DNA of 64,000 bases from Amoebophrya sp. A120 (GCA_905178155.1 CAJINV010000020.1:496001-560000); one strand, 5' to 3'; shown: positions 1-63,433, counted from the stretch's first letter. Notes: generated by a model from the letters alone, not told the origin. A program made the numbers and translations.

Positions 1-448
1 GCCACTTTTGACCTAATCGAGAGGCAGTTTCTCATGCAGGATAGGCATGATAGAACTCTCACAGAATCTGTCATGCTATGTCCTACATACCAGACCTCAT
101 GGGTCATGGAGAACCTGCATGACAAGTCTGCATAGCAGTCTGTAGGTCTTGTCGCAGGAGTCAGCATTTTTGTTGCTGCGCTCCTGGTTTGGCTTTCTAT
201 ATGTTTTGCGAGTAGGAATTGTTGGCTAAGGTTGGCGAAATTTGGCAAAGTGGGATATGTTGGCGTGAAGTGTGTTGGAATCGTGGCCGGGAGATGATGG
301 TGATGGCACTTCGGTGTCCGCCTGACCTACCTTCCCTGCGTGACAGCCATCTGCGGCCGTTTACAAAGGGGGAGGCAAAGTGTGCCGCACTGCTGTTTAG
401 CATGACAAGTCTGCATTCTTCCAGACCCAGACATTTTTGCATTTGATA
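1..448. mobile_element. Introner family A (left end outside window)
   Basis: Right TIR cttccagacccagacatttttgcatttgata ends at 448; bases ~8-125 are the near reverse complement of 51313-51431. Confidence 0.85.
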
Positions 449-3400
449 TGCGACGAGTTCTTTCAACCTCAGCGCAGACGAGGTGAAAACGTACGGGAGT
501 CGGTGGTTGAGCGAGATCCCGTATCAAATGCAAATATGTCTGGGTCTGGAAGATTGCGAGATTTGTCATGCTAGTTTGGTATTATTCTGCAGTCTGTATT
601 GCGTGAGTAGGAAGACGAGCTCCTCTTGTCTGTCATGCAAAGCCGCTCTTTCTCATGCGGAATACGCAACACAGAGCCCCCACGAAAAAACCTGTCATGC
701 TTGGCGGTGCATTGCAGCGTGCTTACTATTCACCGACATGCATCACAAGTTTCCAGCAGACCCAGACATATTTGCAACGCATATCCCGATCCAGAGGAAG
801 GGGGTCCTTGGCCGCGGCGGCTGTGCGATTGTGTGGCTCGGAGCCATATGGATTGCAAAAGTGTCTGGGTCTGGAAGATTGCAACTTGTCATGCTCAATC
901 CGAATCATGCAAAAATCTGTGTTGCATGAGTGCCAAAAGCTGTCCACTTTCGACCAAGATGGGAAGGAGTTTCTCATGCAGGATACTAGGCATGACAGAG
1001 ACCTCGCCGACTTTGTCATGCTAGGTCCCGCATTCCAGACCTCAAGGGTCATGGAAAACCTGCATGACAAGTTTACACTCTTCCAGACCCACACATTTTT
1101 ACATTTGATAAGCCAGTACAGACGGACAGTTATTTGCCGTGAAGCAGGTACAATTCTAAAACAACTGATGATTTTTGTGCGCAAGCAAATTGAGTTTGGT
1201 ATACTGATCTGATCGTCCTTAAAGGCCTTCTTTATCCTCAACGTCATTACAATTTTTTGACGGGCCTTCGCTCTGTTAAGTACTTCGTGACACCACGACG
1301 TCGTTTTGTAGGGCGTTATGCGACTTCTGCTTTATTCTTTGTTCATACATACGTATTTGCAAAAAACTCTTACTGATACTGATAGATACAACGAACTCTA
1401 AGGTGAGCAAAAGCGTATTGCAGCGTGGCGAGCTGGTGCCGCAGACCGGGTCGCAGCTCCGGGGTCTACTGAAAGAAGTGAAAATTCTTCAGAAGCTGGC
1501 TGCTTCTACTTCAAGGAGCAATAAAACATCAAGTTCTACACAATCAGACGGTCAACAGCACGACTACGTATCAGCAGGAACAACCACAGCGAGCTCCTCG
1601 CGGGACGACCATGGAGATCTTCATGACCACCACATCTGTCATCTTAGGGCTTTTGTGGAAAGCCGCAGCGACCTTTGGATCGTGCTGCAGCACGGGGGTG
1701 TGCCCATCAGCCGGGAGCTGTACGAGGTGAAGGGCGAATTCCAGAACAGTGCGCGTGTCTACCGCGTACTGCACGGTCACTTGATGGAAGCTTTGAAACT
1801 ACAGGACCACCATGGAGTACTAGAGGGTAGTTCTTGCTCCTTCCACACGCTGCGCGATTTCTTGCGGCAGCTCTTGTCTGCGTTCGCGTTTCTGGAGAGG
1901 GAAAGAGTCGTGCACGCGGATGTGAAACCTGAGAACGTGCTGATCGACCCAGATATCGCATGCCAATATGTCTGGGTCTGGAAGATTGCGAGACTTGCTA
2001 TGCTAGCCTGGCATGACTTAGAACTCTGTATTGCGTGGCCGCAAAGAGCTCCTTTCGCCTGTCATGCAAAGACGCAGTTTCGCATGCGGAGTACGCAACT
2101 CACAGCCACGGAAAAACTTGTCATGCTTAGCAGCGCATTGCAGTGCGCAGCTCCCTATTCCCTTCCTTGCATCACAAGTTCCCAGACCCAGACATGTTTG
2201 CAATGCATACCAGACTGGCGGTTGCGGCTGTGCGACTTCGGCAGTGCCTACCAGGAGGGGGAAGCGGCGTCGATATTGAGAGGAAAAATCCCCCCTCCCC
2301 ATATCGAAAAGGTATGTTTCCGAAAATTTGTGTTGCTGATTTGAGGTCACAAATCACATTTGTTTTGCAAGAAGACAAACGCAGAGGCTTCCGCGCCAAT
2401 ATGGAAGCGATTTGGCATGCTGTTGGGCCTAGAGGGCAGCCGTTTGTAATGCTAAGCACCTAGACCCAAATGTCCCTCCCTAGGCTGCGGCTCTGGCTGC
2501 GATGCCGTATTGCAAGACAGCGCGGATTTGTGTACACGTAATATCCTGCGTCACAGATTTCCCATTTGATATGGGGTGGGGGCTTTTTTCATTTTGATAG
2601 TCGAGTCTGGGCACTCCTGAGTACATGGCTCCCGAGCAGTTGGATAAACAGATCCACTGGACCACGACCGGAGGCGGAGGTTTCGCCGGAGCTGCATCTT
2701 CTGTGTCCACGCCAGCAAGTCGCTTGACCGCGAAACTCTTGGGTGGAGTGGGTAGTAGTAGTACTTCTAGTGCAGCCCCCGCCGCCACCGCGGCTCTTCA
2801 CCAGCACGCATCGTCCGCAAGTGCTGGCAGTACTAGTAGACGCGGGTCGGCGGACCACTTGTCTTCTTATCATTTCGGAGCTGGAAGTGGTTCTCATCTT
2901 CCGGCTTTTAAAAGCAGCAGCACTACAACTTACACGACTAGTAAACCAAGCAGGGCGTTCTCGACGTCTCCGGAGAAGAAGATGCAGCAACTGCTGCACG
3001 AAACTAAAGAACGGCGCGGGTCCGCGAACGCGACTTCGGAGGTCGTGCAACAACAGCACCTTGAGCAGAACGAGGTCGTATCTGACAAGGTTCACGTGCG
3101 CGAGAAGTCGGACGGGTTCTCGTCCGCACTCGCGGGCGACGTTTGGTCGGCAGGAATGATCTTCCTCGAGATCTGCCACGGCGTGCCGCTGTTATCCTGT
3201 CCAAAACTGTATCGTATTCGTATATTAGATGCAAGTCTTGCATCACAAATCTTTTTCTCAAGGTAATAGAGCAGCATGATAAATTGGTAAAACAAGGAAT
3301 CAAGTTGAGGTCATGGAATCAAGTTAACTGGAATCAAGTTAGGCCTGGAATCAGGTTATATGGAATCAAGTTAAACCCGGAATCAAGTTACATGGAATCA

Positions 3401-4946
3401 AGTTACTACCTGGAATCTATCAAGTGGTGGAATGGAATCAAGTAAACCACCACAACTTCATCCCCATCAGTCTTTCGCCTCGCAATGCCTCCCCTTGGAA
3501 GAATCTAGCTGCTGCGCTTTTTGTGTTTTGTGGCTGCCACACCCTCGCGCCTAAAGTTCTCCGCTATTTTTTTTGAAAGGCGGCCACGTTCATCAAAGGC
3601 GTCTGGCTTTTCTTCCTCTGGTCGATAGAGACGTGGCGAGTAATGTTATAGCTAACCTTCGCGCGCCCGTCTTGTTTTAGGGCTCTTTGCCGAAAGTTTT
3701 CGAGGCTTTCGCCTTGCGAAGTTCCAGGGAGGGATTCCATTTGTGTCTCCTTCCCTCGGAAGGGGTGTGTCTCTGGGAATTCCGTCTTCATTTCGCCTTC
3801 CCTCGGAAGATCCATCCGTCCCTCTCGGAGTTACATTCCCGCTTCGCCTCCTCTCGGGAGACCCATTGCTCATGGGATTCCGTTTCCATTTCGCCTTCCT
3901 GGGGATGGTGTCAGTCTCGGGGGATTCCGTTTTGCCTTCCTGCGGAAGGTGTCTCGGGGGCCGCCATTTCGCCTTCCTTGCCCTCTGGTAGGTCTCTCCC
4001 TGGCGGAAGGACCGCTGCTTGATTGCCTCTTGGGGGAGTGTGAGTTGTTTATTTCCTGGCTGGCGCGAAGCTTTCGCCATCGACTCCAGATTGATGAATG
4101 GCCCGAGCTTATTGACACCTCCTGCGCGACGTGGGTGGTTCGGGGTTTTTCTGTGCCCGGGCTCGCCGAGGCGTTTTGGATTCGGCTTCGGAGCGCGCAG
4201 GTTTGCGGCTGTCCGGGGCTGTGCGCGTGTGCTTACAGCTTTTGCGCCGGGGGCCCCGGGTTTTTTCTTTTGTGTCCCGGGGCCTCGTCACATCTACGCC
4301 CCGGGGCCCCGGAACATGCATGGCCCGTCGGAAGGCAGGCCAGCCTTCGGTAAAGGTAGGGAGGCGGGGGGCCCGAAGCACAGGCTGGCGCGTGCATGGT
4401 GAATAACGTTTGGCGGTGGAGGAGATAACGGGGCCCGCGCAGTGCTTCTCGCGGAAACGGGAAACGGGACACGCAACTTGATTCTAGGACCAAACCTGAT
4501 TCCAGTCAACTTGATTCCAGAGTCCAACTTGATTCCATTTAACTTGATTCCAGTTACCAACTTGATTCCAACAATTTGACCAACTTGATTCCTTGGACGT
4601 CCAATTTCATTTCTCATGCTGAGGGAAGGGGAACTTGTATAAATGCATTTATACGAGTCTACGATGCTTTTGCATTGCATAGCTGTGGCTCTCCTACGAT
4701 TGCTGCGTCGGGACCACGCGGACGCAAGGACTTCTGGGCGCCGGGGGGCGGGACTTCCGGAAGATACGGCAAAAGCAGTCCTCGGTGGTGAAAAATCTGC
4801 GCGCGCTGTTGCAGCACCACTGCTTCGGGGTCCAGATCGGACAGAACTCCGACGCTGTGGACCTGCTCGCGGGGCTGTTGCGACCAACCGTGCCGGAGCG
4901 CCTGCGGGCGAGCGCTGCACTGCAGCACCGCTTTCTCGTTTCTTGA
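449..4946 (+). CDS. Ser/Thr protein kinase (5' end outside window), multi-exon
   Basis: Exons ~449-521, 789-846, 1116-1147, 1403-1953, 2215-2273, 2605-3192, 4687-4946 join to give kinase motifs in order: LGRGGCAIV, FAVKQ, HADVKPEN, DFG, GTPEYMAPE, DVWSAG, R..A..AL.H.F; stop TGA 4944-4946. Confidence 0.93.
522..783. mobile_element. Introner family A
   Basis: TIR tatcaaatgc.../...gcaacgcata; TSD tcccg. Confidence 0.92.
847..1110. mobile_element. Introner family A
   Basis: TIR with tgtctgggtctggaag; TSD agcca. Confidence 0.92.
1148..1402 (+). other. Canonical GT-AG intron
   Basis: CAG|gtacaa...ctctaag|GTG; AT-rich; joins FAVKQ to ORF 1403. Confidence 0.75.
1954..2209. mobile_element. Introner family A
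   Basis: TSD ccaga; splits the kinase between KPEN and DFG. Confidence 0.92.
2274..2599. mobile_element. Introner family B
   Basis: TIR tattgagaggaaaaatccccc.../...ttcattttgata; TSD gtcga. Confidence 0.92.
3193..4681. mobile_element. Introner family C with nested element
   Basis: TSD gctgt; removal gives GVPLWLSY in frame. Confidence 0.9.
3286..4602. mobile_element. Non-autonomous TIR element with GGAATCAAGTT subterminal arrays
   Basis: GG...CC ends flanked by AATT (3282-3285, 4603-4606); tandem ggaatcaagt at 3296-3443 and inverted aacttgattcc at 4475-4592. Confidence 0.75.
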
Positions 4947-5680: not shown

Positions 5681-8600
5681 ATGAAGGGGGAAAATTCATC
5701 TACGTCGAACTTCTCCCGCCGCCGCTCCGGGCGGCGGTATGGGTCGTGGCCTGCTCTTCTTGCAAAGAGTCGCGGCGGTTTCGTTCTTGCTATAGCAGCA
5801 GGCGTCGAGGACAACCAGCACTACGTCGTGCGCGCGAGAACTACTACTTCGCGGTCCTCGTCGTCGTCGTCAAGCTACAATCCGCTCGAGGTGGACCACA
5901 TGAAGATGATGATGAACAGCCAGCAGCTGGATCCGGGCACGCCTACGGCTGCGAACCCGGCGCCGCCCGGCGGCGACCACGTCCTGCTGTACGACCGGTT
6001 ATCAAAAGGAAAAATCCCCCCAACTCCCCATACAAACACGAAACTTCTAATGCTGGCTTTGGATACACAAAGACAAATCAAATTTGTGCTATGCAGTAGA
6101 GGACTGCACGCCGATCCTAAGCCTAGGTAGCAGGGGCCTTTTGGTGTAGGCCTAAGCGCCTAGCATGGTAGACGGCTACACTGTAGGCGTTACAGCATTA
6201 AAAAGCGCCTACATAGTGCGGCGGACAGCCTGGATGTGCCTTCGCGCAAGACAGGCCCGATTTGTGGCTACAAATCTGCATCGCAAGGATGCGCTTTCAA
6301 TTTTGGGAGGGGGGAACTTTCCTGGCAATACCGGTATGGTAGCCCTTACTACACCGACGCCACCTATGGTAGTGTCAGGATTGAAATCGTCAAAGTTGAA
6401 ATAGTTTGTGATGCATAAAATGCAACCCACAAAGCGCCTGTCTTGCAGAGTGGGCAAGGGAGGCAGATTGTAAGCCTGGCGAGGGGTAGAAATAAAGCTG
6501 CTGAAGTAGCATGACACAAGGCGTCACTCTTACCCAAACAGCATTACAAACTGGATTTAGACACCGCCAAAATTTGTCATGCGCCACTTAGAAACTGGGT
6601 CCTAATTGGCATCCATTTTATGCATGACAAATAATTTTAACTTTGTTGATTTCAAGCCTGACGCATCCATACCACCGACACCACGGTGGAGTCTCCCGCC
6701 AAGCTGGACGCGGGGAAGCTGGCCACCTGGGCGGCCCACCTATGAACTGCAAAACAAGTATCGTACTCGTATAAATGCATTACAAATCTCCTCAGCGTGA
6801 GAAATGAAATTTGTATATGCGGATTTAGTATTGCCTTAAGAAAAAAAATTGTAATGCATGATTGCAATGCGAGTGCGATACTTTTGCAGAGCATACCACC
6901 AGGCGCGGGACAACTTTGACCGTTTGCGGGAATCCGGCCTCGTACCGGAGGCCACGCTGGTCCGGGCGTTGGCACAAGGGATCCGCACGGCGCAGGACCT
7001 CTTTCCCTTCCGCGACATTCGCATTGTCGGCCTCGACTCGGTATGCATTGCAAATAAGTATGTCATCTACTGTGTCTGGAAGGTTGCAACTTGTGATGCT
7101 GTCTTCGGATAATTCCAAAAAAAATCTGTATTGCATGACCAGCAAGAGGAGCAACCCAGGGCGTGCTACGCGGGGAGGGCATTTCTCATGCAGAATAGGC
7201 ATCAGAAAGCCCTGCTAAAATTTGTAGGGCTAGGCCTTGCATTACAGGCATCCTGCGCCATGCAACCGGTGCATGACAAGTCTCGGAATCTTCCAGAGCC
7301 AGACACATTTGCAGTGCATACTCGGACCAAAATTTGGTCTTGTCCGTAGGGGGCCACCTCCTCACCTTTCCAGAGGAGGTTCCTCGAGTGTCCGCGAACA
7401 ACGCGACCGCGTCCTCCACCGCAGTCGCTGCCGCGGTGGAGTCTGTCGCTCTGCTTCTTTCTACCGCTGCCGCGGCGCAGACCTCCTCGCATTTGGCTCG
7501 AAGTGCGCAACCCACGTTCGATATGATAATGCAAAACTCCTCCTCCCCCTCATTTGTCATGCAAAACAGCAAATCCTCCCTGTTCCCTTTGGCACTGCTT
7601 GATGAGGTCGCCGAAAGTGCTTCCTCGCCCACCCCCCGGGGAGGGGATCCTTGACCTGTGGCGCTGGGAGCGGGTGTCCACTACATGATGATGATGATGG
7701 CACTGCTTGCATGACAAATTGAAATTTCGGAAGCCGAAACAGCATTAGAATCCATCGGTCGTGAACAATTTGTCATGCAAAGGCTGCAGTGAGGCCAGGA
7801 CTTGTGTTGCTGTTCATGCAAAAATACAAATGAGAGGGAGGGGGAGTTCTTGTGTACTGTCATATTCGACACGGCGCTGGGGGAAGGCATGTTGCTCACG
7901 CTGGTCATTCTTCTGCTCCTCGGAGTGTGCCTCGCTGTCCAGCTGCCCTATCAAATGCAAAAATGTCTGGGTCTGGAAGAATGCAAGATTTGTGATGCAG
8001 GTTGTCCATAACCCATGAGGTCTGGAATGCGAGACCCGGCATGACAGATTTTTTGAGGTCTCTATCATGCCTTTCCTGCATGAGAAACTCCCTCCCAAAT
8101 TGGTCAAAAGCGGACAGCTTTTGGTACTCACGCAACACAGATTTTTGCATCGTTCAGATTTAGCATGACAAGTTCTAACCTTCCAGACCCAGACATTTTT
8201 GCACTTGATATGCCCCTCGACGAGCTGAAACCCTACAGCGAGAAACTGGAACTGAAATTGCAGAAGGCCCTGCTCGAGATGGACCGCGGCGGCAAGGTGC
8301 AGGCCATTCCGGACGACGAGCGGCCGGACCTGAACCCACTGGTGTACACGTATCACCAGTTCATTATCCTAGGCAAAAACGTCCCCACGACCCCTTAGTC
8401 AAGATGGAAAATCTGCTAGACAAATCCACAGCCTTGTTTGGGGCGACTGGCGCATAACAAGTTTTGGGACGCAGTATCTATAATGGTCCTGTGTGTGTAG
8501 GTTGTACTAGCCCAGACATCACATCACAAATCCAGTCTCTGATCCTGGTTCACGCATGACAGATTTTTACCAAGAAACACGATTCAGAAAACGTTGCCCG

Positions 8601-9762
8601 CCAACATGCGGAGCCGCATTACGGATTTTTTTGCATATGCAGATTTGCATAACAACTCTGGGGACGATTTTATTCCCTGAGGATATTGGTGCTGGAAAAG
8701 CTAGTCACGAACGCGAAGGAGGGATCAAATGCAAAAATGTCTGGGTCTGGAAGATAATTGCGAGATTTGTCATGCTTGTCTGGCATGACCAAATAAAGTT
8801 TGTGATGCGTGTCCACGAAGAGACCCTTTTGCCTGTCATGCAAAAACGCAGTTTGTCATGCGAAAAACGCAACACATATTTCTCATCATGCTTGGCTGTG
8901 CATTACAGAGCATGCACTATTCCCAACGCAGCACTACAAGTTGCCAGACCCAGATATTTGTGCATTTGATAGGAGGTGAGAGCGGAGCAAGAGGCCTACT
9001 TCGAGCAACTGCGGCAGAAGGAGGCAGAGCGCAATATGGCGTTCTCAATTGTTACATTCTCAACTGTTACATAAATTTGTGATGCAAGAATGGTAACAGC
9101 AAAATTCGGCGCAGATTCCCATGCTGTTTGGCCCTTCCAAAATTTGTCATGCGAGGCAGCTTCACTGTGTGGACGTTGATGCTCATTTTGCATGAGAAAT
9201 CACGTAACAGTTGAGAATGTGACATTTGAGAACGCCATACGCAAGCGGCGCAAAGAGGAGGCAAGGCAGGCCAGGCTGGCCGCCCGCCGCGCGGCTGGGG
9301 AAGTATCGTAAGGAAAAACCCCACCTCCCCATATGATCGAAAAGGCATCCTTTTGGAAAATTGTGATGCTGATTTGTGGTCACAAATCAGGTCTGTCTTG
9401 CAAGAGAGCAAAGCCAGAGCTTCCGCCCCTTTATTAAGTACGCAGGCGATTTGTAAGAACGCAGCTGCGCCAACAGTGCAGACGTCTGCCAACATGCTGA
9501 GCGCTCACCTCTAGCCAGCCCCTTCCCGGCTTTGTATCTGCCTGCAGTCCTAATATACTGCAAGAGAAATAAGCTGATTCGTGTACGCGAATCCCGCAAG
9601 ACAGATTGCCACTGTGATGATATAGGGAGGGGGAATAGTTTTTCCTTTCGATAGGAAGGAGAGACAGGGGACGACCCGTTTGCGACAAGCAGTAGCAGTT
9701 CTTCCTCCAGTTCTGCCGACTCATCGGACGAGTCTTCAAACGAAGAGCAGCAGTCTCCTTAG
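5681..9762 (+). CDS. Hypothetical membrane protein (~409 aa), 10 introner introns
   Basis: Exons 5681-5999, 6336-6364, 6677-6740, 6901-7041, 7326-7521, 7870-7948, 8216-8364, 8691-8722, 8977-9034, 9245-9303, 9659-9762 sum to 1230 nt, open throughout; one hydrophobic segment (MLLTLVILLLLGVCLAV) then a charged coiled-coil-like tail. Start codon uncertain. Confidence 0.82.
6000..6330. mobile_element. Introner family B
   Basis: TSD ccggt; TAT...ATA ends. Confidence 0.92.
6365..6671. mobile_element. Introner family D
   Basis: TIR tatggtagtgtcaggattgaaatcgtcaaagtt; TSD ccacc. Confidence 0.92.
6741..6895. mobile_element. Introner family C
   Basis: TIR with tgcaaaa..gtatcg; TSD ccacc. Confidence 0.92.
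7042..7320. mobile_element. Introner family A
   Basis: TSD ctcgg. Confidence 0.9.
7522..7864. mobile_element. Introner family E
   Basis: TIR tatgataatgcaaaactcctcctccccctcatttg; TSD ttcga. Confidence 0.9.
7949..8210. mobile_element. Introner family A
   Basis: TSD tgccc; interior is opposite in orientation to 847-1110. Confidence 0.92.
8365..8685. mobile_element. Introner family G
   Basis: TIR tatcctaggcaaaaacgtcccc; imperfect TSD ttcat/ttggt. Confidence 0.85.
8723..8971. mobile_element. Introner family A
   Basis: TSD ggagg; first base G instead of T. Confidence 0.9.
9035..9239. mobile_element. Introner family F
   Basis: TIR tatggcgttctcaa.tgttacattctcaactgttac; TSD cgcaa. Confidence 0.92.
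9304..9653. mobile_element. Introner family B
   Basis: TSD ggaag. Confidence 0.9.
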
Positions 9763-11008
9763 AAGATGCGGGTCACTCTTCACGAACCTTGCAGCTGGTC
9801 GTGCAAGAGGCAGTACAGGATCCTGCACCGGTCTACAGCTGCCTTGCTTTTATTTGATCATTATGTGACTAGTTCTAGTTGATCATGACCAAATTAAATA
9901 ATACCGACCGCCGGTGACGTTGAATGTACACAAGTACTTGCACGCAAGAACGAAGACGAGAACGAGGAGCTATCACTCTAAAAGTACTCTGCTCTAGTTT
10001 GGTTTGTCGTAGTCCGATGGACATGGATTCGATAGAGATAAAGTATTGCAATCCATTTGGCACAAATCGAAATCGAGGTCATCTGACAAAGAAAGTGGAA
10101 GTTGCAAAAAAGCCTGGGACGCCGCTGCTGGTCGTGTTCAGCATCTTCACTGCGACTGCTCCACTTAATAATTGCCCAGCATAAAAAATTCGATAAATAC
10201 TTGATCATACACTCACACTTAAATGCACCTGATTTTATTTCATGCACATGATGATCGGTGAAAATGGATCGAGACTTCTTCTTGTTGTCTCGTCATTTTT
10301 TATAGGCGTCTTCGTGTCCGTGTTTCGTTCTATAATTTCCCTTGATCATCTACATCTGCAGCCAAAGATGAATCTTCCACCATCCAGCCCATGCATGGCT
10401 GCAGGTGTCACTAAGTAGTACTTACCTTCATTGAAAGAAACTCAAACTGCCGCGTCTTCACTCCTGTCAGGACAAACTACATGCAAACTTTATTTTATTG
10501 CGAGTGTGTCAGTCTTTCTCTTTCACTAACGACGCACCTGTAGTTGACTTGGACTTGGTGCCCCACAAGAACGAACCCTCTGTTGACATATTCAAGGCTC
10601 TTTCTGCAGCTACTTCGAGAAGTGAAGAAAAAAATATTCTTTTCCGCACCTTCCCGTTCTGCCGCGTTGTCGTTTGTGTGTTTTTAATATTCGAGCAGCC
10701 TCCCAGTAGATGAATCGTGAGGCCGGTTGCTTTGGCTGACTCCAATTGTGTTGAGCAGGTCGGTTTTCACTTATTTTCGCTAATAAAATGGATGTGATAA
10801 TCAATGGGGCCCGGCCGCTTCTTTGAGTTTTCGCTTTTAGGCTGGTGCTGACACTTTTCTTTTATATTAAAACCCAACTTTTGCAGCCCTGCCCCTGCTG
10901 ACTAAGGCACACCACGTAGAGAGACATGTTGAACAGCAGGAGATCGACAGTACGAGCAGTCGTGTACTAAAACTCGGGCAGATATCCTCGAAGAATATTA
11001 TCAATACC

Positions 11009-51541: not shown

Positions 51542-51577
<36 letters not shown>

Positions 51578-53422
51578 CAATGATCACAGTAGTTAGACCT
51601 TGGTAGGGGCGAGAGATCCTTATAAATGTTTACTAGCGTGAGGAGAAAACCTCCATAAAAAATCTTCATGTTTTTTTTTACTAGCGCTAGCTTTACTACC
51701 CTTGTAGACTTTAGATGCCGCCCCGTACATACTTTCATACTGCGTCGCCTATGTTTTGCGCGACAGCCCCTTTTTTGGCTGGTTTTCCTTGTGTTTTGCG
51801 CGGCAGCCCTTTTTTTTTTTTCTTCTGGCTGGCTGGAGATCCTTTTGCGTAGGGCCCCTAAAGTGGGCAAAAGAACGAAGAGACATACACAAAAATGGAG
51901 CGACCGAAAAGTGGAAAAGAAGACGGGGGGGGAAAGTAATAGAAGAAAAAAGGAGAAGACTTGGCTGGGCGGGGCAAAAAAGAAAAAAGGAAAGATGGGC
52001 GGGGGCATGGGTTGAAGGACAAAAAACACAAGAACTGCAAGTGTCTGGGATTTTGCATGCCAGGAGATTTATTAGTAGAGTGGCAGGGTTGTTATTTTAA
52101 AGACTGCGCTAAGGCAGCGCCCCCCTTCTCCAAGGGGTCCCCCCGGGGCGGGCGCGGTGGCGGCTCTGCCAACGCGGAGCTTCAAAGTCCGACTCTACCT
52201 ATGCGCATACAAAGGGCGCGCGGAAATAGGTCGGCAAAGTGCTTGAAAGGGGCATGCTTTGGGGTTGCCCGTCATCGTGATAGGGTCAATGTGTGTGACC
52301 AATAGGCCCCCCCTATATCTAGCGCGCAACCGACCACAGAAGCAGTAGCGTCCAAAGTTTGTAAGAATAACCCAACAGGGCAACACTGGGGCTCCACCTT
52401 GCTCGCGGGCTTGGATGGTAAATCAGGTCAGCCACATCTAGCGCCCACTGGCTGTGCGCACGCGTAAGAAATCGGAAACGGTTCGGCGGATGCGGTCGGG
52501 TGGTACCTGTAGGACGTGGAACGGGTGTCCACCTAGGGGCATTGGCAGAGGCTAAATCTGTTCTAACGCCACGGTATTGGCAGAGGCTAAATCTGTTCTA
52601 GCGCCACCCTGACAGGAGTCAAATGTCAAAGCGATGCGATGCGATACCATTGCCAAAAATAGTACACAACTTTTGCTGTTTGTGCAAGACAGATTTTTGT
52701 GTGATCTGGAATGCGCATCACAAGTTGCAACCTTCCAGACCCAGACATATTTGCAATGCATATCCGTTGAACAGATGCTGGCAGACGAGACGCGGAAGCT
52801 GCAGCTGCGGAACCAGATGTTAGGTTGAGAGTGCACAGCTCGTGGTCCCCCTCATGATCTCCCTCATTTGTAGTGCATATGCAACAAAAGTTGTACCTCC
52901 TTCACCACTTGCGTTGAAGCACTGTTCGCAGGACAAAGTTCGTAACCTGAACCAGTACACCTACAGTCCCCGGGTATAATCGAAAGTTTGTCATGCGGAA
53001 GACCATCCATTTCTGCCGTTGCTTGTGGTGCCGTTGAAGCATAATTACAAATGAGGGGGAGCAATAAGGGGTGGGGTTCTTGTGCATGGTCATAGATCTC
53101 CTGCGAGGTGCTGAAGGCTGCGGCGCGCACGCGGGACCAGGTGGAGAAAGGCCAAATTGCGGCCGAGGAGAGCCAACGGCGCCAGGAGGAAATGATGCAA
53201 CGCCAGGAGCAGATCCAGCAGCAGGCCGCGCAGGAGCGCGCGGAGGCGACGCGGCGCATGATGGACGCGCAGGAAGCCCACCAGTCGGCCATGTCCAGCA
53301 TGCAGCAGCAGCACGCGCAGGCCAACGCCGCCATGCAGCAGCAGCTCGTCGAGCTAGCCAACCGCCCGCCGCCGGAGGTCCGCGCCATCGAGCGTGGCGG
53401 CGGGGGCTGCGAAATCATGTAA
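46889..53422 (+). CDS. Guanylate-binding protein / atlastin-family GTPase (~845 aa) with C-terminal CaaX
   Basis: Exons 46889-46988, 47230-47681, 47971-48012, 48258-48378, 48669-48766, 49094-49667, 49995-50536, 50795-50995, 51155-51186, 52768-52820, 53100-53422 sum to 2538 nt. G1 GVQRAGKST, G2 HTKGHW, G3 LMDSEG, G4 LLRD; Q/E coiled coil; ends CEIM*. Confidence 0.9.
46989..47224. mobile_element. Introner family F
   Basis: TSD gtcac. Confidence 0.92.
47682..47970 (+). other. Canonical GT-AG intron
   Basis: CAG|gtacca...cgtag; followed by a 42-nt GC-rich in-frame exon. Confidence 0.6.
48013..48257 (+). other. Canonical GT-AG intron
   Basis: CTG|gtacaa...ctctcag|GTG. Confidence 0.6.
48379..48663. 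mobile_element. Introner family G
   Basis: TSD cagcg; splits the DSEG (G3) motif. Confidence 0.92.
48767..49088. mobile_element. Introner family B
   Basis: TSD agagc. Confidence 0.9.
49668..49989. mobile_element. Introner family B
   Basis: TSD cacgg. Confidence 0.92.
50537..50789. mobile_element. Introner family A
   Basis: TSD gaaaa/gaaag. Confidence 0.9.
50996..51149. mobile_element. Introner family C
   Basis: TSD gacca/ggcca. Confidence 0.88.
51187..52762. mobile_element. Introner family A with ~1.2-kb nested insert
   Basis: TSD tctgt/tccgt; insert ~51432-52635. Confidence 0.87.
51543..51575. repeat. (CA)n microsatellite
   Basis: About 16 CA units. Confidence 0.95.
52821..53094. mobile_element. 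Introner family E (degenerate left end)
   Basis: TSD gatgt/gatct; right TIR aatgagggggag...gtcata. Confidence 0.82.
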
Positions 53423-54382: not shown

Positions 54383-57300
54383 ATCCAGATTTCCTCCACT
54401 CGTTCGGTTACTGCTTTCATCGAAGCGTATGATTTACAGCTTGGACGCCCATTAGATATAGGGGCGGCGAATTTCCAGTGATTTTAGAGGTGGCGCACAA
54501 TTGGGGGGCTGCTCTTTCGGGTATTAGTGGTTCGTGGGGCAAGGGCTAGCAAAAATAGAGGCGATGGCAACACTGTGCTCGTCATTATCGCTCCATTACA
54601 TTGATGGCCATCCCCCTCCGCGCAACGCCCAAGCCACCACATCTGATTTCTTGTTTTTTCGCAAAGGGATTCATTTGATGGCTTCAGGATTTTCTCCTTT
54701 CCTTCTTAACCCTTCAACTTCCGTGTCCCAATTTTGGGCAACAAAAATCGCACAAAAACAGCACTTCCATCGGGAAAGGCTTCCATTCAAACATCAATCA
54801 CCATGGTGTGACGAAGATGACTTTTTTGCTAAAAATCATCGATGCGGAGTGCCGTGCTGTTTCTTTGGCGCCAAAAAGCAGGTTAAAAGCACCCCCTTTC
54901 CCGATGGTGTGCTGCGATCGGTGAATTTAGCGGTGAGTTTAGAAATGGGCGGCCGGTGAATTTAGGAAATGGTGGCCGGTGAATTTAGCTTCCCGCCCCC
55001 CACCTGATTCTGGATTCCCGGCCGCCACAAAACAAGCATCCATCTTGCCCTTCATTTCTAAATTCACCGGACCCAAAAAATCTGATCCAGAACAATGGCC
55101 GTCGCATTTGCTCAAGAAAGTGCCAAACCTTTGGAGCATGCGCGCACAAATACGAAACGACCGAAATTCTATTGCGTCTTAAGGTCGCGCGAAAAATCAA
55201 ATTAATGCCAAACAGCTGTTAAACAAACCCTCGATATCTTGGCTGCCAAACAGCTGTTAACCGCCCAGGAGATACAACAACATCGAGAGAAGACGAGCAG
55301 AACGAAGCAGCATCTCCCGGAGTTATCGCATATCCCCATCTTCTTGCATTATTGTCCAACGGTATTGATCAAGCGGGAGCGCGACCGTGAAGGGCAGGCA
55401 CTAGAAGACAGGACGCGGGGCCTGGTATTACAACATCGCTGCCGAGGACTCCAGGAATTCGCGCCATTCTTCGGGGGGTTCGCGAACTTCATCTATGAAT
55501 TCCACGACATCGACCCGCTCGCTGAGTTGATCATTGCCAGACCTACGCACAGGAAGGATCCTTGTCGGTAGTGATCGAAACAATAACGCTCTCCCAGTGC
55601 GGGAGAAGAGCGGAGACCTCATTTCTTCCGGGCCCGCCACAACGCGCTGTGGTTGAAGCACGCACACCGGCAGCAGCTCCTGACGTACAGGGTATCGCCT
55701 GACTACTACCATCTGGAACAGCGGACAGCTATACAGGACCCCGAGGTAGGAAGAACCGAGTCCGCGCAGCGGACCTAGAGCAACAGTGTGAAGCGGCAAG
55801 GAAAGTAGGCCGCAGCTTCCCACCCGAACGCAGGTGACGGAAACACCAGACACAGCCCCCAGAGGCGCGTTTGCCTCCAGACACGACCGGGCGACTCTTT
55901 GATGCCGAGGGCGCAACCCGGAGACGCAGTGAAATTGGAGCACGCCGCTGGGTCTGAAGACGAGCGGCGGAGGCTATACGCCGGCGCACATTCCGGCTTG
56001 CCGGGTTACATCTTTAGCCCCCAGATCCTGTTTCCATGTGTACATGTTTTCTGGAGATCCAGACTTCCTCCACTCGTTCGGTTACTGCTTTCATCGAACA
56101 AAGAGAGAAAAAGCGCGCAACACGAATAGAAGCGCGGAGGCCTGTTTGTTTTGGGGCGGGCAAATCGGCGCAGATGATAGCGAGAATTTGCGGCAAAATC
56201 CGGGGCCCATCATGTTGCGCTGGCTGGCACGCGGCTGCTTTGAGGGCGGAGGGCACACCACTCGAAAAGACCCCCAAGCGGCCGCGTGGCGCCGTCAGCT
56301 CGCCTACCCCTGCAGCCGAGGGGGGCTTTGCATTTGGGCGCGCGCCCCGGTCGCACAGCCGAGAAAACATCGAGGCCACTGGCAACACCTAAAAACGCCT
56401 GCGCCAAAACCCGGGCCCGACCCGAGGACTTCCGCCCAATCTAATCCCAGAAGCACAGCGACAGCGCTGCTCGCGATGTTTGGCGCGCCGGGCCCAGGCT
56501 GTGTTTCCATGTGGGTGGCTGGCGCCTGACTTGCCAGCCATAAGGGCGCAACGCCTCTGCGCAAACACATCCTCCGGGCCTGGGGACCTGATTTTCGAGT
56601 GGCCACAGGCAAGTGCCAAGCGAGGCAGCCGGAAGGCAAAAGGCCCAGTCAGTCGGAGAGGCCCGGGGCGGTGAAGTCGACTAAATGTTTTCTATATTTT
56701 GCGGGATTTTTGAAAAATGAAAAGAACGGGGATCGCGGCGCTGCCTGCGGCGCCACGGTTGGCAGGGACGCCATGCGTCCGGGCACCGCGGGGGTTCAGG
56801 CGCATTGCCTCCCGTCCGTGTGCCCGGCGGCAGTGTTTTCCCCCTGGTGTTCTCGCGTTGCCTTGCGAAAAAATTAAAATTTAAAAATTGGCAGCGTTTT
56901 GAGTGGTATTGCGTGTGCTAGGAGTTTCCCAATCCCGCAGCCTCTTGGGTTCCTCTGTGTTCATTTCCGATCGCACACACCGGGGAAGGTGTGCGTGGTG
57001 GGTTGTCCGTATTCTGCCTCCCGGGCGTGAGGTTGTTTCCAACATCGCGCTGACTTTCGTGAGTCAGTGCGATTTTGGGAAGGGGTTGGGATATGTTTGA
57101 GTTGTCCGTCGGAAGGAAAGGTCGTGGGGCTTCGCGACCGACCTTCGGCAAGATCCGCGGTCGGGGTCGCGCAACGACCTTTCCTGCGGGAAACCACCTT
57201 CCGGACCATTTCCGTTTTGATTTAGAGTCACCGGGGGGTGCATTTTCGGGAACGATTCCTGTGTTTTCGGGAATTTCGCCCGGTTTCGGGGTGGTCTGCT

Positions 57301-59519
57301 AAACCGTTTCCCCGCACGGTTTAGCAGGTTCATTTAGCATGCTGATTTAGCCTGCGACTTAGCATGCTGATTTAGCATGCCAGATAGCGTGGCACTTAGA
57401 GCCCCCATGTAGCACCCCCATTTAGCGCCCCCATTTAAAGGGGTGCGATTTAGAGCCCCCATTTAGCACCCCCATTTAGAAGGGGTCGATTTAGAGCCCC
57501 CATTTAGCACCCCCATTTAGAAGGGCTCGATTTAGAGCCCCCATTTAGCACCCCCATTTAGAGTGCCATTTAGAGCGCTTTTGGGCAGGTGCCCACCTCG
57601 TCTGCGAAATCGGCCCCATGATTTGCTTCTCCCCACCCCGCAACGCTTCTCCGGGTTTTTCCCCACCCGCAGTGCGCAGGGGGCCGCGCCGGAGTTTCTC
57701 CTATGTCTTCTTTTCCTCGGTCCCACACCATTTGCCTCTGTGTTCCCCATTTCGTCTTTGCCTTTTTCCTTCTCGCCCCTTTTCAAGTGAGGCGCCGTTC
57801 GCATATTCCCCGGGAAGGCCGTTTTTGAAAAATCCCGCAAAATTTAGAAGCGATTTAGCAGCCACCACCGCCCCGGCCCCTCCGCCTGAGCCCAGAACCT
57901 TCCGAAGGCCGAAGAGCGGGGCACTTGGTTGGGGCCGCGCCAATGGCACGGTAACAAACATTGCCCGGGGCGCAACAGATTTGGGCGACTGGGCCGCCCT
58001 GTGTGCATGCGCCCCTTTCCGGGCCAGAGCTTTCCGGGCTTGCCTTTGTCCGGTTATTAGACACAGGGCAGTGGTTGCACGGCCTCCAGTGCCAGGTGAC
58101 GTGCGGCGCGCGCAACTAGAACCCAAGGGGCCGGATCTGTCTCGGCCCGCTCCACAGGCTTTGAAAGGCCGAGGGCGCTTCTTCTAGAAGAGGCCTACGG
58201 AGGCCCCTCCGACAGGCCCCCCAAAATGGTGCCTCTTCGAAGGCCTTCCACGATGGTATGAGGCCTGCCGGGATGCCCCCCAAACAGGCCCCCCCGGAAG
58301 GCCGAATGGCCGGGGCCTTTGCCTTCTGGTGCACCTTTTAGGGCAGCCGCCCCCGATGCCCCAGTCTCATCGCGGGAGCCGGCCCGCCGGGCCCGCGCTC
58401 GCAACTGCCCGCACCGGATGATCCACGGACCGCCCGAAGCCATAGGGTGGCTGAATTAGGCTACGCGGGATCGGGGGCGAGGAAGCCTTTTTGCGTGGTC
58501 CTACTGACTGCGCACCCGGAAGCCCCCGCGCGCTGCCGGCGTGCAGCAAGGTCTGCATGGTCGGGGCTGTCCTGGGGCTTCGGCGCTAATGCTGCTAAAG
58601 CAGGCGCGATGGGGCAGCCCGAAAAAATAGCGCGAGCTCCTTCCGGCTCGCAGGGCCGGCAAGGCAGGTCGGATGATGGGCAAACCCCCGCGGCCGGAGG
58701 AACTGGCCCAGCGCATGCCATTCCCTCTGGCAATAAGCCCGCCGGGCAGTTCCGCCCTTCCGGAAAAATATGGCCCGGGACTGTCCGCTGTGGTGAGGCC
58801 AACACCGGGAACAACAGCGGTGGCGCTCCAGCAGCCGAGGGGTTGCGGGCCTTTACCACTATCGCCGCCCAGGTCTAGTTGTTTGTGAGGGCCGGAATCT
58901 GTTGCAAAATCTGAGCAGAAGGAGGCCCCCCGAGATCAATTATGCCAACAACGAGACACATATCGGGCCCGGGATGGGGCGGAGCGCTCCGCGCGGTCCC
59001 GGGGGGAAGCGGCTAGTCGCATCCGGGGCCCTCTTTGTTTTTGCGCTTTTACGAGCTAGACATTGTGCGGGGGCTCGGAGTTGCAAGCTTTTTGCCTCGG
59101 CGAAATCAGAACCCTAGAAGACCCCGGGGACTAGAAAAGTCATGGCGGCTGGCGCCAGCGCATCTTTACCAGTAGCTTTACTCGCGCTGCGCTTTTGGTT
59201 TGAGATCGCGCAGAGGCCCCACAGAACTTGGGCGGCCCTTTGGTTGCTATGCCGAAAAATAAGGAGCCAGTTGAATTGCCCGGCTGTGGCCACGACCTCG
59301 GTTTTGCGCCGGGCCTTGATTTCAGACCGGGGCGGTGTGGTTCATTCGGAGCATGTTTACGCCACATTAACCAAAAGAGGCACGATATGTGCGCAAAATA
59401 GTTCTTGCTTTTCTATGCTGATGAAAATTTTTAATTCAGCGCACAATTATTCATCTTTTCGCGCCATAATCCAGATTTCCTCCACTCGTTCGGTTACTGC
59501 TTTCATCGAAGCGTATGAT
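54383..59519. mobile_element. ~5-kb insertion bounded by identical 51-bp direct repeats
   Basis: 54383-54433 equals 59469-59519; third copy at 56037-56098; GC-rich interior with no recognisable ORF. Confidence 0.55.
57330..57578. repeat. ATTTAG-based tandem array (~41-bp unit)
   Basis: Repeated gatttagagcccccatttagcacccccatttagaagggg. Confidence 0.85.
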
Positions 59520-59523
59520 GTAG

Positions 59524-59766: not shown

Positions 59767-59886
59767 AAGTTTTTGAAGTACTAGGTGTCCTCTTGTGCCA
59801 CTTGTTTGATCTTGTCCCAACAACTCCAAGCCTAAGAAAAGTAAAACACTCCTGCTACAGTCGCTGGAGAAGTAGATCCACTTCGC

Positions 59887-62800
59887 ATGACTTCTTCCTC
59901 GTTTAGTTGTCTGCCACTGAAGCCCGGCGACCACCTGATCAAAGAGGACCACGGGGGCCGCGTTACGCATGCTCTATTTTGTATGGAAGCGTCAGGTTTG
60001 AAATCGTCAAAGTTGAAACAATTTGTAATGCATGAAATGCATGGCCTTGGCCTTGGCCCGAGGTACGTGTGTTGCAGAGCAGGCAAGTGAGGCCGATTGT
60101 AAGCCTGTTTGGGGTTACAGCTCGAGCTGCTAAAGTAGCATGAGAAAATCACTCTTCTTTACCTAAACAGCATGACAAACTGGATTTAGGGACCACCGAA
60201 ATTTGTCATGCGCCACTTGGAAACTGGGTTCCAACTGGCATCCATTTGATGCATGCCAAATTATTTCAACTTTGTCGATTTCAACTCTGACACATCCATA
60301 TTTTGCGGGCAGGCCAGCTTGCGAGCGGGGGACGGCAGCAGTTACAACTTGCAGCACAACAAGTTCAGAACCACGACTGGTGGTTCTACAGTCGCAACGA
60401 AAGAGGTGGACACAAAGGTTGTAGGTAGTCAGGAAGAACTGGTATGGCATTCGCAAACGTTCCATTCTTGTTCCCATGTGTCAGATTGTTTCTTGTATGG
60501 TCGCTGGGACCACGGAGCTACCGCAATTCGTCCTTTGTTTGCCACTGTTGACTTCCATGCTTTTTCTTCTGGCGTTTGAAACTTGATTGTTGTCGTCACA
60601 AATGATGATGGCAAAGGCAAGAACTAGAACAGTTGCGACGGCCATAACAGGAGGAAGACACTTTTTTGCAGGACTGCTGTCCGGAGCTGGAGCATTTTGT
60701 CGTTTTTTTGAAGCAAGTGGACTCCTCTACTGTGGCCGTGTGGAAGCAGACGCTGAGGGAATGGTGCCAAGACTTTCAATTTGCGGCTGCGTCGCCGATT
60801 TTCATGGGGGGTCAACATGTCAGAACAACCGGCGAGGACCACCCCGAGGTCGTGATGCGGGGGTCGTTATCGGGAGATGAAAGACATTCTATTTCTCCAA
60901 CAGGAGAAATAGCAGTTGCTGATGAAGCAGCAGCAGGCAGCTCTTCTATAATACCGCAAGAAGTTCAAGATGAGCTTGACAAAGAACACCGCAACAGCGA
61001 CGGCTTCGTTCCGACGGACCTCTCTGTGAAAGAAGAGATAAGACATGATATGCAAAACCAAGACCAGCTCTCGGGGGTGAATGATTCTACCGAGTCAAGA
61101 CGTGGTAACGAAAACGAGCAGCCTGCGGAAGTGAATACTAGGGAGCCCCCTTCATCTGGTAGCCTGCAAAACAAAAATCCTCGACCATCACCAGGGAAGA
61201 TTTTTATACCGGAGGAACCAGGAGAAGTAGACCAGGACCGCACAGCACCTCCCGTGGTCACGACCTTTCCCTCTGTTGGCCTAGACGAGAAAGCTGAATC
61301 ATTCGACCCTGAAGTATCAAATGTAAAAATGTCTGCGTCTGGAAGAATGCAACTTGTAATGCTGTCTGCGGATTCTAAAAATATCTGCGTTGCATGAGCA
61401 GCATGAGGAGTGAGTTCTTGGCACGCGGAGAGGGCATTTCTCATGCGTAATTAGCATCAAGAAGCTCTCACGGGTCATGCAAAATGTGCATGACAAGCAC
61501 AAGTCCAAACTCTTCCAGACCCAGACATTTTTGCATTTGATATGAAGAGACGACGAACAACAAGCCGAACGACCTCTCGACCACCCGGCTCGTGAGCGTG
61601 CGGTTCTACCTGAATCGTCCGTTTTCGCGGCGGCGCGCGGTGTACGTGGCCTTGCGCGCGCTGACGGAAACGCCGCGCATCAAGCTGCACGCCAGCCTGG
61701 TGCGCGAGGTGTTGGAGTCCGACGTGTTTCCCTGGCACTGCCTCTTCCAGGACGAGGCCCCCGCCTTTGACCCGGGCGTGGCCCTGTCGCACATGAAGGC
61801 GAAGCGGTACCGGCGACAGCCCTACCAGGAGGGCTTTGTCAGCGAGAACCTGCTGGAGAGTCTGCAGCAGGGCACGGTCCTCATGTCCCACGGGGCCGTG
61901 GTGGTGCGCGGGGCGCGGATCGCGCGCTTGTTGCGGTTCTCGACCGCGGCGGTGGGGAGCTGGGGCCGGCTCGGGGCGCTCATGGGCGCGAAGTTATCCG
62001 AACGTATCTTCACGCAGGACTCGCCGCGGAGCGCCGGGGCCGCCGCCGCGGGAAGCTGGATTGGGTATAAGTACTTACTCTCACAGCTCGTATGGGTGGC
62101 AATTTAAATTCTGCAACACATTGCGGTTCGTCGTCTATCGAACCTTCTATGTACAATTTCAGGATCAGGTCACCTGTACTCGAGGCCGTGTTCTTGTTTT
62201 GTTGATAAGTAGTTTTTGGAAGCCACGTTGTCGTTGAAACACGATTTGACGAAAACGAAAATCGAAACCAATTCTCCAGTTCTGTGGCTGGCGCGAGCCT
62301 TGGCGCGAGCGTTGCCTCCACGACCGGCACAGCGGCCGCCGCGAGCTACAGCGCCACCGCGTCCGCGCACTTTGGGGCCGCGGCGTACACTATCGAATGC
62401 AAATATGTCTGGGTCTGGAAACTTGTGATGCTGAATGGTCGTGATTGACTGCGCCTCAAAGTGCAGTATAGCATGACAAATGTTTCATACGCTTTGTCAT
62501 GCGCAGAACGCATTACAAACTGCGCTTTCATTGCATGACGAAATTCTGGCGCTTTATTTGCTGCTTATGCATTACAGATTTTCATTACGAATGCGAAACA
62601 TCCAATACAGGTTCAACCTTTCCAGACCCAGACACACTTGCATTTGATATACACGCTCGGGGCGGTGGAGGGCGGGTCGATCGCCACCAGCATCTATCAA
62701 ATGCAAATATCCCTGGATCATGTCTGGAAGGATGCAACTTGTCATGCTGTCCTTGGATTCGAAAAAAATCTGTATTGCGTAAGCACCAAAGAGGCATCTA

Positions 62801-63433
62801 CTTCATGAGGCCCTGCCTCAGAAAATCTGTGATGCTACCGCATACATCACAGACGTCATGGGTCATACAAAAGCTGCATGACAAGTCTTCCCATCTTCCA
62901 GACCTCCAGACACATTTGCATTTGATAGCATCCTTGCCGCCACGTCGCTGGGGGCGGCCGGGGCCGTGGTTGGCGCGGGTATCCTCTGCAAAAGTAGCGT
63001 ATTCGTATTGCAATCATGCATTACAAATCTTTTTGTTAAGTCAAATCCGCATTACAAATTTTCTTTCTCATGCGGAGGGAATTTGTAATGCATTTATACG
63101 AGTACGATACTTTTGCAGTGTATAGCGGGCGCGGCGCTGCTGATCAAGAACCACCTGCTCGCGCACGAGGCCGGTAAAGCAGACCGGACGAGCCAGTACT
63201 TGGAATCCGCTCTACACCTGTTCGAGGACTCCCAGGATCCGTTTGGGCACCTGGACGTCATCCTGGGCTTCGACGATGTGGAAGAAAATCGTCAAGCCGC
63301 GCCGAACACCAGTACAACTAGCGAAACTTCCGCTCCTCCGCAAGTGGCGCTGGGCTGGTACGCGATACCCATTTCGCCCGCGGAAGCTGAACGGAGCCAC
63401 AACACAGGGGCAGCTGCACAACCTGGTGGTTGA
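59887..63433 (+). CDS. LRAT/NlpC-P60-like domain protein (~630 aa) with Gly/Ala-rich hydrophobic region
   Basis: Exons 59887-59981, 60306-60441, 60672-61314, 61548-62064, 62280-62390, 62655-62694, 62933-62979, 63130-63433 sum to 1893 nt. LKPGDHL...THALFCG resembles the LRAT N-terminus; glycine-zipper-like GAAGAVVGAG. Start uncertain. Confidence 0.72.
59982..60300. mobile_element. Introner family D
   Basis: TSD ttttg. Confidence 0.92.
60442..60671 (+). other. Canonical GT-AG intron
   Basis: CTG|gtatgg...ttttttgcag|GAC. Confidence 0.7.
61315..61542. mobile_element. Introner family A
   Basis: TSD tgaag. Confidence 0.92.
62065..62279 (+). other. Canonical GT-AG intron
   Basis: GG|gtataag...ttctccag|T. 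Confidence 0.7.
62391..62649. mobile_element. Introner family A
   Basis: TSD tacac. Confidence 0.92.
62695..62927. mobile_element. Introner family A
   Basis: TSD gcatc. Confidence 0.92.
62980..63124. mobile_element. Introner family C (145 bp, shortest in window)
   Basis: TSD gcggg. Confidence 0.92.

Follow-up and report, generated by a model that had tools for sequence, protein, structure and literature searches.

The transposon-like elements that interrupt the genes of Amoebophrya sp. A120 are precisely removed from its transcripts without GT-AG splice sites, and here we report that one position of the junction fits all five elements that carry evidence on it. We analysed a 64,000-nt stretch of the genome (CAJINV010000020.1:496001-560000 of assembly GCA_905178155.1; hereafter the window), which holds 51 complete elements with terminal inverted repeats (TIRs) and one that is truncated by the window start. 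Proteins named for strain A120 match two window exons at 100% identity, which indicates that this strain is the host. The elements are the A120 introners of Farhat et al. (2021, PMC7789003; here and below, published work is cited from parts of each paper), a link to Amoebophrya that had already been suggested by a first-pass annotation made from the sequence, and both the phenomenon and the elements are therefore known. What is new is a single junction register (the base of the flanking 5-bp repeat after which the cut falls) that accounts for five elements with imperfect repeats. The removal mechanism of the A120 introners is open in print; imperfect target duplications are built-in junction markers and offer a concrete and cheap route to it.

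A self-comparison of the window revealed repeats of ∼150–350 bp all through its genes. With nine or more of 14 end bases required to be complementary, a strict scan returned 31 TAT..ATA pairs flanked by a perfect 5-bp repeat, compared to 0–1 per shuffle in five shuffles, and the full list was completed by a relaxed scan and an end profile. The ends match this profile, an inverted repeat made of TAT, seven variable bases and an A-run. The 51 complete elements start with TAT (46), TAC (three), GAT (one) or TAG (one) and end with ATA (50) or ATC (one); their flanking repeat is perfect in 41, has one mismatch in eight and two mismatches in two. Clustering gave groups of 20, 9, 6, 4, 3, 3 and 2 members and four singletons, three of which were assigned by their ends to families B, C and G, so that eight families were reproduced. 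The first-pass annotation had given the same numbers of elements and families, with TAT starts and ATA ends in nearly all, and the scans bore it out. It had also claimed a 5-bp direct repeat at each complete element; the length is right, but in ten of the 51 the two copies differ. A candidate with a 3-bp repeat at 21716 and end-profile matches at 39708 and 39896 were dropped as chance.

Apart from four long elements (1.5, 1.6, 2.2 and 13.7 kb) the elements are short, and the ends fold together in 43 of the 47 short ones. Short length, TIRs, a target duplication of constant length and insertion in either orientation are the features of miniature inverted-repeat transposable elements (MITEs); members of one family occur in both orientations within plus-strand genes, the RNA-tested ones included. 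The elements are non-coding copies, with no integrase-like open reading frame (ORF) between the TIRs, as expected of non-autonomous copies. Rfam gave no matches in the window, Pfam gave three on 20 translated window stretches with no transposase among them, and a domain scan found no transposase among eight non-host window ORFs.

Removal was followed in assembled contigs from four runs (X3–X6, two samples of one study) that we guessed to be RNA, over the region 5850–12420. That these contigs are transcripts is supported by a poly(A) loose end at 10082 and by the absence of coverage between genes. All 11 elements of the region were skipped as the element plus 5 nt, ten in four of four runs and one (element 16) in two of four, and skipping was seen for both orientations. 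They are (family, coordinates without strand, repeat and length skipped in brackets) element 6 (B, 6000–6330, CCGGT, 336 nt), element 7 (D, 6365–6671, CCACC, 312 nt), element 8 (C, 6741–6895, CCACC, 160 nt), element 9 (A, 7042–7320, CTCGG, 284 nt), element 10 (G, 7522–7864, TTCGA, 348 nt), element 11 (A, 7949–8210, TGCCC, 267 nt), which is oriented opposite to elements 9 and 13, element 12 (E, 8365–8685, imperfect repeat TTCAT/TTGGT), element 13 (A, 8723–8971, GGAGG, 254 nt), which has the GAT start, element 14 (F, 9035–9239, CGCAA, 210 nt), element 15 (B, 9304–9653, GGAAG, 355 nt) and element 16 (B, 11962–12289, GCGGG, 333 nt). At elements 15 and 16 the edge sequence G-TAT..ATA-G makes available an in-frame GT..AG intron that is 3 nt shorter (352 and 330 nt, respectively), and it was unused in both. 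Elements with only 3 of 5 matching repeat bases were still removed exactly.

Canonical U2-type sites (a GT/GC donor with an AG acceptor) do not describe these introns: sliding the junction within the repeat reaches GT..AG in 1 of 51 elements (element 25, family D, 15830–16227, repeat CAAGG, at register 4), and neither of the two edge sites was used. The contigs (11/11) and the GBP protein described below uphold the earlier claim of precise removal without GT-AG. The accompanying claim, that sliding yields no common dinucleotide, is correct in that no pair is shared by all 51 elements at any sliding position, but element 25 does give GT..AG and two elements give GA..AG.

Element 12 also assembles in a retained form (8335–8719) at a depth of 6–8, compared to 31–59 for the neighbouring spliced contigs (X3 and X4). 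It has the poorest repeat match among the elements tested, and the retained contig may reflect slower splicing, or element 12 may just be the only one unique enough to assemble. The elements are kept in DNA-like contigs: in the one such run (X1, stage of the DNA not recorded), contigs cross element junctions at a depth of 29–31, compared to 15–43 for unique sequence, and element 35 (family C ends, 42764–42937, repeat TCGAC) lies whole in a contig at single-copy depth. Two raw RNA runs (X10 and X11) did not cover the locus: their 50 and 19 reads, respectively, fell without exception on fragments of elements.

Removing each element with 5 nt leaves long stop-free frames over 50 of the 51 junctions, in six plus-strand genes. 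The first-pass annotation had the frame restored every time, which is less certain for element 47 (family D, 59982–60300, repeat TTTTG), as this element sits only in a 237-nt stop-free stretch. The annotated A120 guanylate-binding protein (GBP) is identical to our spliced model at 831 of 831 amino acids. The AT5.2 orthologue of an AP2-like protein (P0003) is 85% identical and has no gaps at five of five junctions, and in the main alignment of a 2051-amino-acid protein the paralogue P0004 is gap-free over the 2.2-kb and 13.7-kb elements. Intact frames over 50 junctions together with orthologue conservation imply that removal is required in vivo. As AT5.2 is gap-free at the five junctions though it is a strain reported with canonical introns, the alignment suggests that the five insertions into the AP2-like gene postdate the A120/AT5.2 split.

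We asked where within the repeat the cut falls, using imperfect repeats as markers of which repeat copy the transcript keeps. The evidence comes from elements 12, 38, 43, 44 and 46, while the imperfect repeats of element 20 (family B, 14058–14387, ATCGG/GTCGG) and element 32 contribute none. At element 12 the joint 8363→8690 has one ambiguous base, which places the cut after base 4 or 5; it keeps upstream bases 3–4 and is the same in four of four runs. At element 38 (family A, 43688–43929, GAGTC/GAGGC) a piece from X5 begins at 43934, which is downstream base 5; upstream base 4 is kept in the transcript and the register is at least 4. The annotated protein P0002 reads ESG there, and its orthologue likewise. 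At element 46 (a decayed member of family G with the TAG start, 52821–53094, GATGT/GATCT) the annotated protein P0001 reads QMSC and so keeps upstream base 4, again giving a register of at least 4. One contig piece (50790–50992) informs on two elements. It ends at upstream base 2 of element 44 (family C, 50996–51149, GACCA/GGCCA), for a register of at least 2, and, as it begins at 50790 without extra letters, base 5 is the downstream G of element 43 (family A, 50537–50789, GAAAA/GAAAG) and the register is at most 4. A single register fits all five: the intron consists of base 5, the element and bases 1–4 of the second copy (N-TAT...ATA-NNNN). By our own arithmetic, a uniformly random register would give the five outcomes with a probability of ∼0.02.

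The cut is therefore likely to lie at a fixed distance from the element ends, independent of orientation and target sequence, with spacers of 1 and 4 nt; the upstream exon would keep bases 1–4 and the downstream exon would start at base 5. At this RNA-indicated register the intron starts with N-T in 50 of 51 elements, and A is found at +3 and at -7 in 51 of 51. The apparently fixed junction upholds one half of an inference of the first-pass annotation, which had postulated a dedicated machinery that recognizes the ends: the recognition of ends is supported, whereas their strand-asymmetric conservation (below) leans slightly towards a relaxed spliceosome and away from a dedicated machinery. Decayed element 46 holds two GT..AG look-alikes inside, yet the annotated protein corresponds to loss of the entire element, with the weak TAG/ATA ends as its limits.

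Two other routes to the register were rejected. From DNA alone, the polarity of A/T versus G/C mismatches gave a 6:1 hint in the window that was gone in 245 elements of a related assembly (below). Published tallies of splice sites (Table S4 of Farhat et al. 2021, PMC7789003, in which all nine top A120 splice classes start with N-T, and the family tallies of Gozashti et al. 2025, PMC12130899) were set aside because of a 3′ A-N excess, which points to placement by a motif-seeking aligner. Our literature search, which covered freely accessible text, found no paper that maps the junction register in A120.

Transposition is blind to transcript direction, so an asymmetry of end conservation along the transcript suggests a step at the RNA level. 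Metagenome contigs, scanned by pattern, supplied 136 loci of the related assembly, in which a detector that scores without the terminal triplet found 322 elements; 80 shuffled loci gave it none, and in the window it recovers 39 of 51 elements. Gene direction in these loci was predicted by a coding model, which was correct in 41 of 42 confident window cases in cross-validation. We used 239 of the 322 elements, having dropped mixed-family pairs, the visibly false pair L014, elements within 15 nt of a locus end and those with an orientation score of 5 or less. Among the 239, the outer T at the 5′ end varies 0 times and its 3′ partner seven times (p = 0.016). The third base varies in the opposite sense, eight times at the 5′ end versus three at the 3′ end (p = 0.23), or 12 versus three when the window is added (p = 0.035), and the contrast between outer and third base has p = 0.004 in the 239 elements alone. 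A-C mismatches exceed G-U wobbles at the third pair (nine versus two), which argues that the 3′ A is kept for its identity and not for pairing. Of the 290 elements from the related assembly and the window together, 287 conserve A-7, and in 49 the two copies of the 5-bp repeat differ, a share that would come to thousands genome-wide. Along the stem we saw no selection for RNA pairing (G-U 211, A-C 212), and repeat bases 1 and 5 can pair in an unremarkable 105 of 296 cases, counting G-U. The related assembly shows no base preference at target sites, and its elements are oriented 36 versus 32. The 25 longest matches between the window and the fetched loci include no homology outside elements, so that presence and absence could not be compared.

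The short elements share a further feature, the internal motif GCAT(G/C/T)ACA(A/G), or GCATBACAR. It has 126 copies in the 13.1 kb of short elements, where it occurs in 45 of 47, in both orientations and across all families, typically 33–45 nt inside each end; the 31.6 kb of window sequence outside elements contain 0 copies. In the related assembly it is present in 240 of 245 oriented elements, and 370 further copies outside detected elements probably lie in elements that the detector missed. Either a transposase or a splicing factor may bind at the motif, whose symmetry fits both. The parts of Farhat et al. 2021 and Gozashti et al. 2025 cited here do not mention it.

How might such introns be recognized? 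Our preferred explanation, which we would put a little short of an even chance, is an ordinary but relaxed spliceosome that is guided by the fold-back, with N-U-A as donor and the A at -7 as branch point. It is favoured because A120 has U2, U4, U5, U6 and nearly all spliceosomal proteins while U1 was not detected (PMC7789003), and because Giardia and Trichomonas provide a precedent for a fixed distance from branch to acceptor and for a CT donor (PMC6679479). Inverted-repeat transposons sit in exons in either orientation beside a duplicated 5-bp target, one copy of which is removed from transcripts with the element, and the cut would keep a constant distance to the paired TAT/ATA ends. The fold-back would join the ends in place of U1, perhaps with a factor bound to GCATBACAR ∼40 nt inside each end. 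The donor N-U-A would be a GUA donor minus its G, and it does resemble the GTA donors of the GT-AG introns in the window without the G. Branching would occur at the A that opens ATA, 7 nt upstream of the junction, and the acceptor would be set by the distance from this A and not by AG. A branch at -7 would leave an AG at the edge too close to use, which matches elements 15 and 16. Spread would depend on an integrase-like (Ginger-like) transposase encoded elsewhere. In a stricter form of the proposal, to which we give slightly lower odds, the spliceosome would work without G+1 and terminal AG on the palindromic code N-UA...AU(A)-NNNN, its branch A always at -7; since such a code lies wholly inside the TIR, any copy, in any orientation and at any site, would be a perfect intron that restores its target.

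Several observations weigh against the fixed register and its spliceosomal reading. The sole upper bound on the register comes from one contig of one run at depth 7, and from piece boundaries rather than a listed joint. Annotated proteins supply two of the lower bounds; as this annotation was built from transcripts, possibly from the same RNA as X3–X6, they are not independent. Farhat et al. (2021, PMC7789003) call the splice position relative to the hairpin variable or unknown. The asymmetries rest on small numbers: the outer-base asymmetry is absent within the window (1 versus 1), and the third-base asymmetry, 4 versus 0 there, does not reach significance when the related assembly is taken by itself. 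A U-G wobble is preserved in five of the outer 3′ variants, so that pairing alone could explain part of the effect, and gene orientation in the related assembly is itself a prediction (right in 41 of 42 cross-validated cases). No residual enrichment of AG or GT is present at any target position. Element 13, whose GAT start leaves no U at +2, is still removed, and it offers GA..AG at another register; the sequence around A-7 fits YUNAY in some families only. No lariat, branch point or machinery has been observed, and the domain scan of the window found no transposase.

The same fixed junction could also be produced outside the spliceosome, by a nuclease that measures from the base of the stem and a ligase, with a circular or linear product, as has been proposed for the nonconventional introns of euglenids. 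The missing G at +1, the missing AG, the absence of target preference, the disregard of available GT..AG sites and the folding of 43 of 47 short elements are all as expected of such enzymes, and the geometry resembles that of Euglena, where a paired trinucleotide lies 3 nt (CAG) and 5 nt (CTG) from the junctions (PMC12501133) and introns leave as circles (PMC11282704). We nevertheless regard it as unlikely, though the main competitor, because conservation of the ends tracks transcript direction and base identity (U+2, A+3 and A-7) over pairing, the stem shows no excess of G-U over A-C, and a spliceosome core is present and GT-AG introns occur in the same genes. A different view accepts RNA splicing but lets the junction slide within the repeat, guided by the duplication and with no fixed code. 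Evidence on the register comes from just five elements, a single one of which sets an upper bound, elements 38 and 43, which bracket the register within family A, have opposite orientations, the position is called variable in print (PMC7789003), and contigs lose rare variants. Even so, all five elements fit one register, the joint of element 12 is identical in four of four runs and removal is exact even where 3 of 5 repeat bases match, all of which makes a sliding junction improbable.

Two further explanations dispense with splicing, and both appear very improbable to us. A hairpin between direct repeats is a classic setting for template switching, and the RNA evidence is all derived from cDNA, assembled, and taken from runs guessed as RNA; the skipped form might then arise when reverse transcriptase jumps over the hairpin. 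Stalling at the base of the stem would leave the downstream copy of the repeat in the product, whereas the transcripts keep upstream base 4 (three elements) or base 2 (one), and this reversed polarity argues against jumping. Moreover, only one base of common sequence exists at element 12, and the skipped form dominates over the retained one in X3 and X4. Alternatively, the elements might be cut out at the DNA level in the life stage that is transcribing, much like the internal eliminated sequences of ciliates. Transposon ends with TA and precise removal with one repeat copy would suit this, and X1, of unrecorded stage and judged among the joints listed, leaves room for rare empty sites. Yet X1 contigs pass over element junctions at the depth of unique sequence, the RNA-like runs contain an unspliced contig over element 12, and the conservation of ends depends on transcript direction.

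All six host genes lie on the plus strand. A protein kinase gene (1–4946, PF00069; its 5′ part lies beyond the window) contains the partial element (family A, 3′ end only, 1–448, downstream repeat TGCGA), elements 1 (A, 522–783, TCCCG), 2 (A, 847–1110, AGCCA), 3 (A, 1954–2209, CCAGA), 4 (B, 2274–2599, GTCGA) and 5 (C ends, 1.5 kb, 3193–4681, GCTGT), and a GT-AG intron starting at ∼1148. A membrane protein gene of unassigned family (5900–9762) carries ten elements and precedes the poly(A) end at 10082. The gene for the 2051-amino-acid protein, which is cysteine-rich and PAN-repeat-like (11339–38399), has 18 elements. Besides those given above, these are elements 17 (A, 12522–12882, CCTGG), 18 (E, 13035–13316, GTTTT), 19 (C, 13626–13800, GACCC), 21 (B, 14463–14767, CCCTG), 22 (A, 14859–15136, AACTC), 23 (H, 15179–15393, ACACC), 24 (B, TAC start, 15411–15714, ACAAC), 26 (A, TAC start, 16529–17122, GATGC), 27 (A, 17250–17528, GTACC), 28 (A, 17698–17967, CAGCT), 29 (A, 18341–18602, CGGGG), 30 (B ends, 2.2 kb, 18800–20952, GTGCA), 31 (F, ATC end, 21805–22125, ACCGC), 32 (C ends, 13.7 kb, 22175–35873, imperfect repeat GTTTC/GCTTC) and 33 (A, 36218–36478, CACGC). 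A 12-nt in-frame micro-exon (15398–15409) lies between elements 23 and 24, and several further exons are only 25–35 nt long.

The gene at 42193–44106 holds five elements, among them 34 (A, 42404–42671, GCAGC/CCAGC), 36 (G, 43011–43238, AGGTG/AAGTA) and 37 (F, 43379–43623, CCGGC); we take its product to be AP2-like from the first-pass label and a motif, its exons having no Pfam match. The GBP gene (46889–53422, 831 amino acids, PF02263) holds eight, including 39 (F, 46989–47224, GTCAC), 40 (E, 48379–48663, CAGCG), 41 (B, 48767–49088, AGAGC), 42 (B, 49668–49989, CACGG) and 45 (A ends, 1.6 kb, TAC start, 51187–52762, TCTGT/TCCGT), as well as a GT-AG intron at 47682–48257. A second membrane protein gene (60807–63433) contains elements 48 (A, 61315–61542, TGAAG), 49 (A, 62391–62649, TACAC), 50 (A, 62695–62927, GCATC) and 51 (C, 62980–63124, GCGGG). 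Between genes, G+C-rich repeated or inverted segments at 40460–41203 and 56649–57889 are of a different kind and lack TAT..ATA ends.

Element 32 contains a degenerate insert resembling a non-LTR (long terminal repeat) retroelement (23416–34305), with an ORF of 1221 amino acids that has an endonuclease domain (PF14529) and one of 959 amino acids, separated by G+C-rich tandem arrays (27347–29503). We take the end of the first to be reverse transcriptase-like and that of the second to be RNase H-like, though neither label has a Pfam match. Two short telomere-like runs GGGTTTAGGGTT lie at 35190–35250, near the 3′ end of the insert. Elements 5 (3293–3448 and 4475–4595) and 30 (18841–20527) contain inverted arrays of short tandem repeats, which are perhaps other nested repeats.

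About 30,000 repeated introns are reported for A120. A fixed register across them, if true, would amount to an explicit splicing code: it would predict the branch point, set right all annotated intron borders that are ambiguous, and account for the way these transposons can land anywhere in coding sequence free of cost; a palindromic spliceosomal code, if true, would be a solution convergent in geometry with that of Euglena.

Finally, we compared the elements with known systems. Farhat et al. (2021, PMC7789003) described A120 introners with inverted repeats starting with TAT and direct repeats of 5 bp, and more than 60% of A120 introns as non-canonical, with a border position that 'remains unknown'. 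The window elements agree in strain, in the TAT, seven variable bases and A-run of their ends, in their many families, in a direct repeat within the 3–5 nt range (5 nt here) and in RNA-supported removal at non-canonical sites. They differ in that five imperfect repeats point to one register where the border was unknown or variable, and the internal motif, the strand-asymmetric ends and the ignored GT..AG at element edges do not appear in the parts of that paper cited here. In Gozashti et al. (2025, PMC12130899), of which our comparison covers 40 of the 58 A120 rows of supplement 8, most A120 introners are TIR DNA transposons of unknown superfamily. Their family 38 is assigned to Ginger, with a 5-bp target-site duplication (TSD), TA/TA termini and integrase-like ORFs; the window elements have the same duplication and termini, but no integrase-like ORF is found in the window. 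Their TSD lengths, called automatically, range from 2 to 6, and their splice sites were taken from annotation. A paper in G3 (2025, PMC12005148) reports canonical introns in another strain.

The nonconventional introns of euglenids are alike in having a trinucleotide paired between the ends, fixed spacers with the longer one on the 3′ side, direct repeats that allow sliding, no GT-AG and a likely MITE origin (PMC12501133, PMC11282704). They use CAG/CTG with spacers of 3 and 5 nt in place of TAT/ATA with inferred spacers of 1 and 4 nt, the lineage is unrelated, and a circular product has been shown in Euglena (PMC11282704); the window elements work alike but are not members of this class. The spliceosomal introns of Giardia and Trichomonas, whose branch point is fused to the 3′ site, offer a precedent for a constant distance from branch to acceptor, for intron halves that pair with each other and for a CT donor, but they retain AG as well as a conserved branch consensus, and they are not transposons (PMC6679479). 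The introners of Micromonas and Aureococcus are, like the window elements, MITE-like, with TIRs, a target duplication and intron gain by insertion (PMC11282704, PMC7789003). They differ in using canonical sites, one carried by the element and one co-opted from the duplication, and thus require particular targets, whereas the window elements need no particular target.

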